From a virus (lineage: Duplodnaviria; Heunggongvirae; Uroviricota; Caudoviricetes), in the IMG/VR virus record IMGVR_UViG_2671180673_000014: 10,142 bases of DNA. One strand, given 5' to 3'. Below, piece after piece: positions 7,094 to 8,039 of the stretch; the stretch's first letter is position 1, and each line of letters opens with the position of its first letter. The notes beneath the pieces are model-generated. The model was not told the DNA's origin. It did not search any database and saw nothing but the letters and a program-made list of their open reading frames with translations. Position numbers and translations under genes: made by a program.

Positions 7094-8039
7094 ACGCCCA
7101 CTGGTTATAAACACGCAGCTGGCAATGAAAATTGGCTTAAACGAAGCCATTGTTTTGCAACAACTGCACTACTGGTTGAGAGATACCAACTCCGGCATGG
7201 AATGTGATGGTGTTCGCTGGATTTATAACACAACGGAACAATGGCTGGAACAGTTCCCATTCTGGTCAGAGTCAACGTTAAAGCGCGCGTTTGCAAGTCT
7301 GAAAACGCTGGGGCTTTTGCGTTGTGAAAAGCTCAATAAATCAAAGCGCGATATGACCAATTTCTACACGATCAACTATGGGAGCGAGCTTTTAGATGGT
7401 GGCAAATTGAGCGAATCCATCGGTTCAAAATGCGCCGCTCCATCAGGTCAAAATGACACGATGGAAGAGGTCAAAATGAAACGCTCCATTGGTTCAAAAC
7501 GACCCAATGTCATCGGGTCAAAATGGCCTGATGATCTTACAGAGAATACAACAGAGATTACTACAGAGAATAAAAACACTTTTCGTCCGGAAGCTTCGCA
7601 ACCGGACCCGCAGACGACTGAACAGGATTTTTTAACCCGGAACTCCGACGCGGTTGTGTTTAGTGCGAAAAAACGCCAGTGGGGTAGCAGGGAGGATTTG
7701 GCGTGTGCGCAGTGGATCTGGGGGCGGATCGTGGGTCTCTACGAACAGGCAGCCAGTGATGATGGCGAGATCATGCGACCAAAAGAGCCTAACTGGACTG
7801 CCTGGGCCAATGACGTGCGCACAATGCGGATGCTGGATGGCAGAAGCCACAGACAAATTTGCGAAATGTTTGGTCGGGTTCAGCGAGATCCATTCTGGGT
7901 AAAAAACATCATGAGCCCGTCAAAGCTCCGCGAAAAATGGGACGAACTGGTCATCCGCCTGGGACGTTCACCTGTACAGCGTTGTGTTAATCATATTTCT
8001 GAACCGGATACAGAAATTCCGCCTGGTTTCAGAGGATAA
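7074..8039 (+). CDS. Phage replication initiator (O-like) with N-terminal winged-helix region, iteron-encoding linker and DnaT-like C-terminal domain (321 aa from ATG at 7074; the track ORF starts on TTG at 7020)
   Basis: The C-terminus SEPDTEIPPGFRG closely parallels the C-terminal tail of E. coli primosomal protein DnaT as I recall it ([13 protein letters not shown]). The N-terminal region is helix-rich (LAMKIGLNEAIVLQQLHYWL). Five direct repeats lie inside the gene. Confidence 0.75.
   Translation: MSLLFAERPLVINTQLAMKIGLNEAIVLQQLHYWLRDTNSGMECDGVRWIYNTTEQWLEQFPFWSESTLKRAFASLKTLGLLRCEKLNKSKRDMTNFYTINYGSELLDGGKLSESIGSKCAAPSGQNDTMEEVKMKRSIGSKRPNVIGSKWPDDLTENTTEITTENKNTFRPEASQPDPQTTEQDFLTRNSDAVVFSAKKRQWGSREDLACAQWIWGRIVGLYEQAASDDGEIMRPKEPNWTAWANDVRTMRMLDGRSHRQICEMFGRVQRDPFWVKNIMSPSKLREKWDELVIRLGRSPVQRCVNHISEPDTEIPPGFRG
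7416..7525 (+). repeat. Five direct repeats (iterons) at 23-24-bp periodicity, putative replication origin inside the initiator gene
   Basis: R1 7416-7432 tccatcggttcaaaatg; R2 7439-7455 tccatcaggtcaaaatg; R3 7462-7478 tggaagaggtcaaaatg; R4 7485-7501 tccattggttcaaaacg; R5 7509-7525 gtcatcgggtcaaaatg. Analogous to lambda ori iterons within gene O. Confidence 0.6.
7538..7578 (+). repeat. Three tandem ~12-bp A-rich repeats (ACAGAGA-A/T-TA) flanking the iterons
   Basis: tacagagaataca / acagagattact / acagagaataaaaaca, directly downstream of the iterons, where an A+T-rich unwinding region would be expected. They encode the repetitive linker TENTTEITTENKN. Confidence 0.4.

Follow-up and report, generated by a model that had tools for sequence, protein, structure and literature searches.

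A probable replication origin embedded in the initiator gene of a Qin/DicA-type lambdoid prophage

Iterons and an A-rich tract inside the initiator gene

The viral DNA IMGVR_UViG_2671180673_000014, analysed here as a single stretch of 10,142 nucleotides (nt) and referred to below as the window, comes from an E. coli lambdoid prophage of the Qin/DicA-DicC type and holds its early region. One of its genes encodes an 'O-like' replication initiator of 321 amino acids (aa), and in the middle of this gene lie five direct repeats, or iterons, followed by an A-rich tract built from 12-nt units. Iterons and tract are considered here as a candidate origin of vegetative replication. The features of the gene, in window coordinates, are as follows:

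7074–8039, + strand: 'O-like' initiator gene, 321 aa (966 nt), PHROG 391
7074–7400, + strand: N-terminal winged-helix domain (aa 1 to ~108), presumed iteron-binding module
7416–7438, + strand: iteron 1, core GTTCAAAATG at 7423–7432; codon offset 0
7439–7461, + strand: iteron 2, core GGTCAAAATG at 7446–7455, arms CCATC...GATGG; codon offset 2
7462–7484, + strand: iteron 3, core GGTCAAAATG at 7469–7478; codon offset 1
7485–7508, + strand: iteron 4, core GTTCAAAACG at 7492–7501, arms CATTGG...CCAATG; codon offset 0
7509–7532, + strand: iteron 5, core GGTCAAAATG at 7516–7525, arms TCATC...GATGA; codon offset 0
7539–7583, + strand: A-rich tract, three 12-nt ACAGAGAWTAMW units (7539–7574) plus AACACTTTT; presumed DNA-unwinding element (DUE)
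7620–7958, + strand: C-terminal helical domain (aa ~183–295), from BLASTP against lambda O and AF2 helices at aa 183–295
7977–8036, + strand: C-terminal tail QRCVNHISEPDTEIPPGFRG (aa 302–321), a copy of the last 20 residues of the host E. coli DnaT

A repeat search placed the starts of the five repeats at 7416, 7439, 7462, 7485 and 7509, confirming the number of iterons and the spacing of 23/23/23/24 nt given in an initial annotation of the sequence. The block that they form (7416–7532) consists of five copies of a 21–23-nt semi-palindrome with a 10-nt core, GKTCAAAAYG, which was found at 7423, 7446, 7469, 7492 and 7516 and nowhere else on either strand of the window. Phased 9-mers (≤1 mismatch, spacing 20–26) formed a chain of five in the initiator gene. 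No chain of three or more was present in the rest of the window, and the longest chain in 300 dinucleotide-preserving shuffles was two. A chance origin of the repeats is thus excluded. Each unit is an imperfect palindrome; over 58 units from 10 lineages the consensus is TCGATCAGGTCAAAATGACCCGAT, with arms ATCAGGTCA and TGACCCGAT around AAA, and the left arm and the A-tract are its best conserved parts.

The repeats cover nt 343–510 of the 966-nt gene, encoding aa 115–170. The repeat starts have codon offsets of 0, 2, 1, 0 and 0, so that the copies fall in three reading frames, indicating that the iteron repeat is a feature of the DNA and not of the peptide. The initial annotation had assigned a repetitive SIGSK linker to the same DNA. 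This holds for copies 1, 4 and 5, which translate as (S)IGSK, but not for copies 2 and 3, which read SGQND and EVKMK. In three of the five copies, the peptide repetition is a by-product of the DNA repeat. The 290-aa E. coli homologues P0018–P0021 carry a clean deletion of 31 aa (93 nt = 23+23+23+24) which leaves one of the five iterons; recombination of iteron 1 with iteron 5 would be expected to remove four iterons in this way.

The three A-rich 12-bp repeats that had been reported to follow the iterons were found again as ACAGAGAATACA at 7539–7550, ACAGAGATTACT at 7551–7562 and ACAGAGAATAAA at 7563–7574. The least stable 40-mer of the initiator gene is 7537–7576 (z 2.5, top 0.8% of the window), and the segment 7538–7585 is 69% A+T and 48% A. 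A GATC sequence (Dam site) lies at 7533–7536, exactly at the junction of iterons and tract, and is kept in most relatives with GGTCAAA-type iterons (as gatgatcc or gatgatct).

Repeats and tract among related genes

In about 180 related genes from several phyla, 3–6 repeats with a period of 22–24 nt occupy the same position. Eighty homologous genes were collected with two N-domain peptides only, coming from Enterobacterales, Pantoea, Pseudomonas, Photobacterium, Acinetobacter, Moraxella, Staphylococcus, lactobacilli, bacilli and clostridia. In about 45 of these 80, the best 9-mer cluster of the entire gene lay at nt 310–510, with 3–6 copies spaced 22–24 nt apart (or multiples of this). The 9-mer word itself differed among homologues (GGTCAAAA, GCAAATTGC, TGCCCTCAT, CATGTGATC, GATCCAACG, TACCCAAAA and others). 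When distinct viral open reading frames (ORFs) were instead collected via the tract motif, 75 of 99 had at least three phased copies within the 190 nt upstream of the tract, compared with 0 of 99 equal-length controls from N-domain coding DNA and 0 of 98 from C-terminal coding DNA.

Sequence comparison indicates that the iterons track the N-domain of the initiator and not its C-domain. Among pairs of genes, which are phylogenetically non-independent, mean identity of the iteron consensus was 0.69 where the N-domains were at least 60% identical and the C-domains unrelated, but 0.46 where the C-domains were at least 50% identical and the N-domains less than 50%, and 0.48 where both were unrelated. 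GGTCAAA iterons, unchanged in register and in the three frames they occupy, are kept by relatives in Citrobacter, Raoultella, Enterobacter, Xenorhabdus and Klebsiella phages, which differ in their C-domains and neighbouring genes. For six close relatives, the number of variable sites per nt, based on small counts, was 0.068 in the iteron block and 0.038 in the tract, against 0.108 and 0.119 in DNA for the folded domains. Iteron and tract DNA therefore varies less than folded-domain DNA among these relatives, even though it encodes a linker predicted to be disordered.

Of the 80 genes collected by N-domain, 57 had a clustered tract core, [CAT]A[GA]AGAnT[AT][ACT], in every case immediately 3' of the iterons; the core was present in 0 of 1600 shuffles. 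Thirty-five genes encode T-E-x-T repeats at this position, and in these all 96 Glu codons were GAG (background 45%), and ACA was used for the first Thr in 93 of 96 cases (background 25%). The unit's third codon, A-N-T, is free at its second position and can encode Asn, Ile, Thr or Ser. Fixed synonymous sites next to a free amino acid-changing site are the signature of selection on DNA. Of 160 units, 153 were in frame; the first unit in seven genes lies 10–11 nt from the next and in another frame (reading RDY or KDY), with the DNA motif kept. The motif was also retained in the GC-rich host Comamonas, in a gene of 38% A+T. This pattern argues that the 12-nt units are selected as DNA, and the dual constraint of coding and DNA function suggested in the initial annotation is borne out by repeats that encode a predicted disordered linker and by a tract whose synonymous sites are fixed. 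We infer that the units do more than supply low stability.

Stx-phage 'O' genes share the tract at 97.5% DNA identity over 40 nt, despite having different iterons (GGGAAACCC), and their N-domain is a distant relative of the initiator N-domain family (hhalign probability 84%). One example is the 'O' gene of the Stx2a phage Stx2_14040 (L002 1380–1552), with 23-nt-spaced GGGAAACCC iterons and four ACAGAGA-tract units. Unlike in the window, helicase and 'replication protein' genes lie downstream of this 'O' gene, and the same origin layout thus serves both loader-encoding and loader-less phages. Of 108 tract-bearing ORFs, 89 fell into one N-domain cluster and 14 into a second, combined with 21 C-domain clusters. 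On these sequence groupings, the tract goes with the winged-helix initiator superfamily. A full-text search for the tract sequence or its peptide found no paper in the literature covered.

The initiator protein and its genomic context

The initiator is a mosaic in which the N-domain is RepA_N-like, the C-domain lambda-O-like and the tail DnaT-like. Residues 147–294 align with residues 135–270 of lambda O (34% identity over 148 aa, E 1e-26, BLASTP), and the 'O-like' label of the initial annotation is apt for this part of the protein. It does not extend to the N-domain, which is outside PF04492, and there is no gene for a P-type helicase loader. PF04492/TIGR01610 (Phage_rep_O) match lambda O and not the initiator, in which no Pfam or NCBIfam domain was detected; Pfam, NCBIfam and PDB sequence searches with the N-domain gave only sub-threshold winged-helix matches. 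In hhalign comparisons, the N-domain profile had no similarity to the N-domain of lambda O (probability 0.1%) or to the N-terminal domain (NTD) of the pSK41 Rep protein (probability 0.04%), and none of 25 family members matched PF06970 (RepA_N), even at E up to 1.

The full-length AF2 model, built on a 12-sequence alignment, was poor (pLDDT 55.7), with weak Foldseek matches (best E 0.05). The N-domain was therefore modelled separately with 76 sequences, and its predicted fold was closest to the RepA_N/DnaD-type winged helix. In the full-length model, aa 108–175, the part encoded by iterons and tract, are predicted to be disordered. The N-domain family occurs in phages of Proteobacteria and Firmicutes and comprises more than 10,000 protein clusters (about 10,300 at 50% identity), without a Pfam or NCBIfam model. 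Many long proteins (400–880 aa; P0126, P0129, P0149, P0171 and others) have two separate N-domain matches, and Pfam searches of these long proteins returned no informative domains.

The C-terminal tail matches DnaT in PDB entries 2ru8, 6aep and 9zbt_D, and positions 160–179 of NCBIfam NF002770. An ending of the form [PA]xGF[RK] is present on 38 of 161 distinct initiator C-termini, the C-domains of which do not align with one another. The ending [IV]PxGFRG likewise recurs on otherwise unrelated C-domains, and some of the tails resemble DnaT over 20 residues. Such a pattern suggests a short linear motif taken over from DnaT. A second type of tail, ...HWNSPEAWENTL, recalls the ...TDWIYGVDL end of lambda O. 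The route by which DnaT recruits DnaB-DnaC is called unknown in two papers, which also assign no partner to the DnaT C-terminus (PMC13377028, PMC4132743). No P-, DnaC- or DnaB-type gene was found downstream of the initiator gene in the window or in the phages PhiR42_1, HannyBb and mEp460 (PV340562, PP925841, LR597641), so that a module with the initiator alone must rely on helicase loading by the host.

The initiator gene lies in an early region, the other features of which are as follows:

20–1315, − strand: integrase, with excisionase and then an 835-aa exonuclease next in gene order
5867–6274, − strand: dicA-like repressor gene
6297–6325, + strand: pR-like sigma-70 promoter candidate, TTGACT-17-TATCTT, 9/12 matches, from a consensus scan only
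6358–6588, + strand: cro/dicC-like gene
6572–7093: YdaT/cII-like gene, overlapping the initiator gene by 20 nt in a different frame
8040–8855: DUF977/Ren-like gene, then methyltransferase gene

The promoter candidate sits between the divergent dicA-like repressor and cro-like genes, upstream of the cro(dicC)-ydaT-initiator operon. From this match and position, a pR-like promoter may tentatively be placed there, and its transcripts would cross the origin. An Rfam scan of the window found DicF alone (small RNA, 4774–4825, minus strand, 76.7 bits), which confirms a Qin-type dicB-dicF region, and no known RNA at the repeats. Six ambiguous (non-ACGT) bases lie near DicF, at 4596, 4632, 4644, 4750, 4926 and 4947.

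The initiator gene is assigned to PHROG 391 ('replication initiation O-like') with E 1e-91. Its product is 100% identical to 'DNA replication protein O' of phage PhiR42_1, and the gene is 98% and 97% identical to those of the isolated phages HannyBb and mEp460, respectively. The MSLL start is kept in homologues. The gene was matched in 2797 of 5426 complete E. coli genomes, with the match spanning at least 80% of the gene in 1849; the top-ranked chromosomal E. coli records label it 'hypothetical protein'. In the 448-aa database entries P0001, P0002 and P0004, the complete initiator sequence is joined to a YdaT-family (PF06254) part, a fusion that may reflect a frameshifted allele or a gene-calling artefact.

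Replication model, alternatives and known origins

We propose that vegetative replication of this Qin/DicA-type lambdoid phage or prophage starts from an origin at 7416–7583, located in the linker-encoding part of its initiator gene, and give this reading a probability of roughly 0.85. Origin activity is inferred here by analogy with lambda and pSK41. The key events would be as follows: Expression: rightward transcription from the pR-like promoter would make the initiator and traverse the origin. Binding: dimers of the N-terminal winged helix would occupy the five iterons, giving a bent, O-some-like complex. Opening: this complex would open the adjacent ACAGAGA tract. Loading: the lambda-O-like C-domain and the DnaT-like tail would recruit the host DnaB-DnaC, either directly or via the host partner of DnaT, a step given to the C-domain and tail since genes for P, DnaC and DnaB are lacking in the phage. 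Bidirectional theta replication would ensue.

Plasmid Rep proteins bind DUE 13-mers as single strands, and by analogy the initiator could bind the 12-nt units sequence-specifically in this form. A bolder, joint proposal, which we hold as possible but on balance somewhat doubtful, is that the CAGAGAnTAC units (2–5 copies) are an undescribed, sequence-specific origin element recognised as DNA and more than an A/T-rich zone for melting, and that in Enterobacterales the loader-less phages load DnaB via the copied DnaT tail. The element would then be common to the winged-helix initiator superfamily, for example through being bound single-stranded by a conserved part of the initiator. If true, this proposal would point to the partner of the DnaT tail in replication restart.

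Several observations weigh against an origin at 7416–7583 that works in this way. The N-domain is tied to RepA_N by its predicted fold only, without profile similarity, and the role of the DnaT-like tail in loading is conjectural. In a scan, DnaA boxes were absent near the origin and, over the window, not in excess of chance, and no other host-factor site was found near the origin. Several intergenic stretches of the window are less stable than the tract, which is only 69% A+T. Alleles with the 93-nt deletion, retaining a single iteron, exist in E. coli genomes. The lack of independence among the gene pairs reduces the force of the match between iterons and N-domains, and literature searches found no experimental origin specific to this N-domain family or element.

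An alternative is that the repeats are initiator or regulator sites for autoregulation, copy control or exclusion, acting by handcuffing or titration, and that replication starts elsewhere in the phage genome. Plasmid iterons do act in copy control as well. Cloned lambda iterons are reported to give an inhibition phenotype (PMC3349717), and unwinding or initiation at 7416–7583 is itself an argument by analogy. However, the iterons adjoin the least stable stretch of the gene, their layout is the same as that of two proven origins (lambda ori and pSK41 ori), and they follow the initiator N-domain even where neighbouring genes differ. Furthermore, with the core word absent elsewhere, no alternative iteron cluster is visible in the 10-kb window. 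We regard this alternative as unlikely.

Slightly less probable still is an explanation without any role in initiation, in which the repeats are slippage or duplication tolerated in a disordered linker, and the tract is kept mainly as a homologous joint for swaps of N- and C-terminal modules. The predicted disorder of the linker is consistent with this, as are the variable copy numbers (3–6 iterons, 2–5 tract units) and the deletion alleles arising via recombination between repeats. The tract does coincide with module boundaries: for Klebsiella phages, sharing is confined to nt 58–499 of the gene, and for Stx-phage O genes to the tract, at the 97.5% identity given above. On the other hand, neutral repeats would not hold their position and a 22–24-nt period across phyla while tracking the N-domain, and a palindrome around an A-tract fits known initiator sites (PMC7145576). 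That the tract nucleotides are fixed despite N-domains of ~40% identity and GC-rich hosts requires purifying selection that acts directly on the DNA. The tract could serve both as a recombination joint and as an unwinding element, but a joint alone does not explain nucleotide conservation across phyla.

The least probable alternative, that the repeats are selected for the encoded peptide (a SIGSK / TENTTE linker with a protein function) and that DNA periodicity is secondary, can draw on the (S)IGSK of copies 1, 4 and 5 and on the 153 of 160 in-frame tract units, but is rejected on reading frames and codon pattern, since copies 2 and 3 encode unrelated peptides in other frames, the tract shows no variation at synonymous sites yet is free at the second position of the third codon (N/I/T/S), the DNA motif survives in units read out of frame (as RDY or KDY), and the linker peptide is dispensable in pSK41 (PMC5703833).

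An embedded origin at 7416–7583 would be a reliable landmark for annotating prophage replication modules and would explain the conservation of this part of the gene at the DNA level; 'silent' recoding of the initiator gene would then not be silent. The iteron word would predict incompatibility or exclusion groups. A mimic of the DnaT tail on phages lacking a loader would offer a handle on DnaB-DnaC recruitment by DnaT-type adaptors. A DNA motif that crosses phyla beside iterons, together with this mimic, could matter more than the origin itself.

The lambdoid origin layout has been described (PMC7466680), and the lambda-ori-like arrangement claimed in the initial annotation is upheld by the position and spacing of the iterons and by the A-rich tract. 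In both cases, the origin or proposed origin sits within the gene for the initiator, where it separates the N-domain and C-domain coding parts. The first iteron starts at nt 349 of lambda O and at nt 343 here, and the spacings are 20/24/23 (four annotated) in lambda and 23/23/23/24 here; the iterons are palindromic around an A-tract (TCCCTCAAAACGAGGGA in lambda), and are followed on the same side by an A-rich, purine-skewed tract. The C-domains are homologous, and the gene order cI-cro-cII-like-O-ren-like is shared. Unlike in lambda, the N-domain belongs to a different sequence family, there are five iterons of different sequence, the tract has defined 12-nt repeats in place of a plain A/T run, the P gene is absent, and the protein ends in the DnaT-like tail in place of ...TDWIYGVDL.

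The second comparison is with rep of pSK41, a RepA_N plasmid of S. aureus with a proven ori, in which the NTD winged helix binds the boxes, the linker is ori-encoded and dispensable, and the C-terminal domain (CTD) is host-specific (PMC5703833). The same source reports a functional origin in plasmid pPR9, a candidate member of the present family whose Rep has an N-domain of the phage-like HTH_36 type. Iterons of the RepA_N type are direct repeats of semi-palindromic form, with inverted repeats converging on a poly-A tract (PMC7145576), and the units described here fit this as semi-palindromes converging on an A-tract, central in the initiator gene. The two proteins are of similar length (319 aa in pSK41, 321 aa here) and have the same plan of an NTD winged helix of ~110–120 aa, a linker encoded by the ori or its counterpart, and a host-specific CTD. 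For a dispensable linker and for box binding by the NTD in the present system, the predicted disorder and the co-variation of iterons with N-domain lend indirect support. In pSK41 rep, four boxes (GTGTCAAAAGGACAC) lie exactly 23 nt apart at nt 409–490, mid-gene, and are directly followed by three 15-nt AT-rich repeats; box GTGTCAAAAGGACAC agrees with GGGTCAAAATGACCC here at 11 of 15 positions. The differences are that the N-domain here has no detectable similarity to PF06970 or the pSK41 NTD, that this is a phage system in Gram-negative and Gram-positive hosts and pSK41 is a plasmid, that the tract has 12-nt CAGAGAnTAC units in place of 15-nt TGATACTGATTTTAT, and that the CTD is lambda-O-like, whereas that of pSK41 binds DnaG. 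A tblastn search of plasmids with a staphylococcal family member returned mostly phage-like records of ~40 kb.

For the tract, the closest parallel is with the DUE 13-mers found in oriC and in iteron plasmids, RK2 among them; these 13-mers are repeated, conserved in sequence, and bound single-stranded by the initiator. Both sets are tandem repeats of about one helical turn beside initiator sites, A/T-rich, strand-asymmetric and conserved in sequence and not just in base composition. The units here differ in their CAGAGAnTAC sequence, in their 12-nt period and in lying inside a coding region. Set against these systems, an origin embedded in its initiator gene would be expected by a specialist, and what may be new here is the CAGAGAnTAC tract together with the DnaT-like tail.

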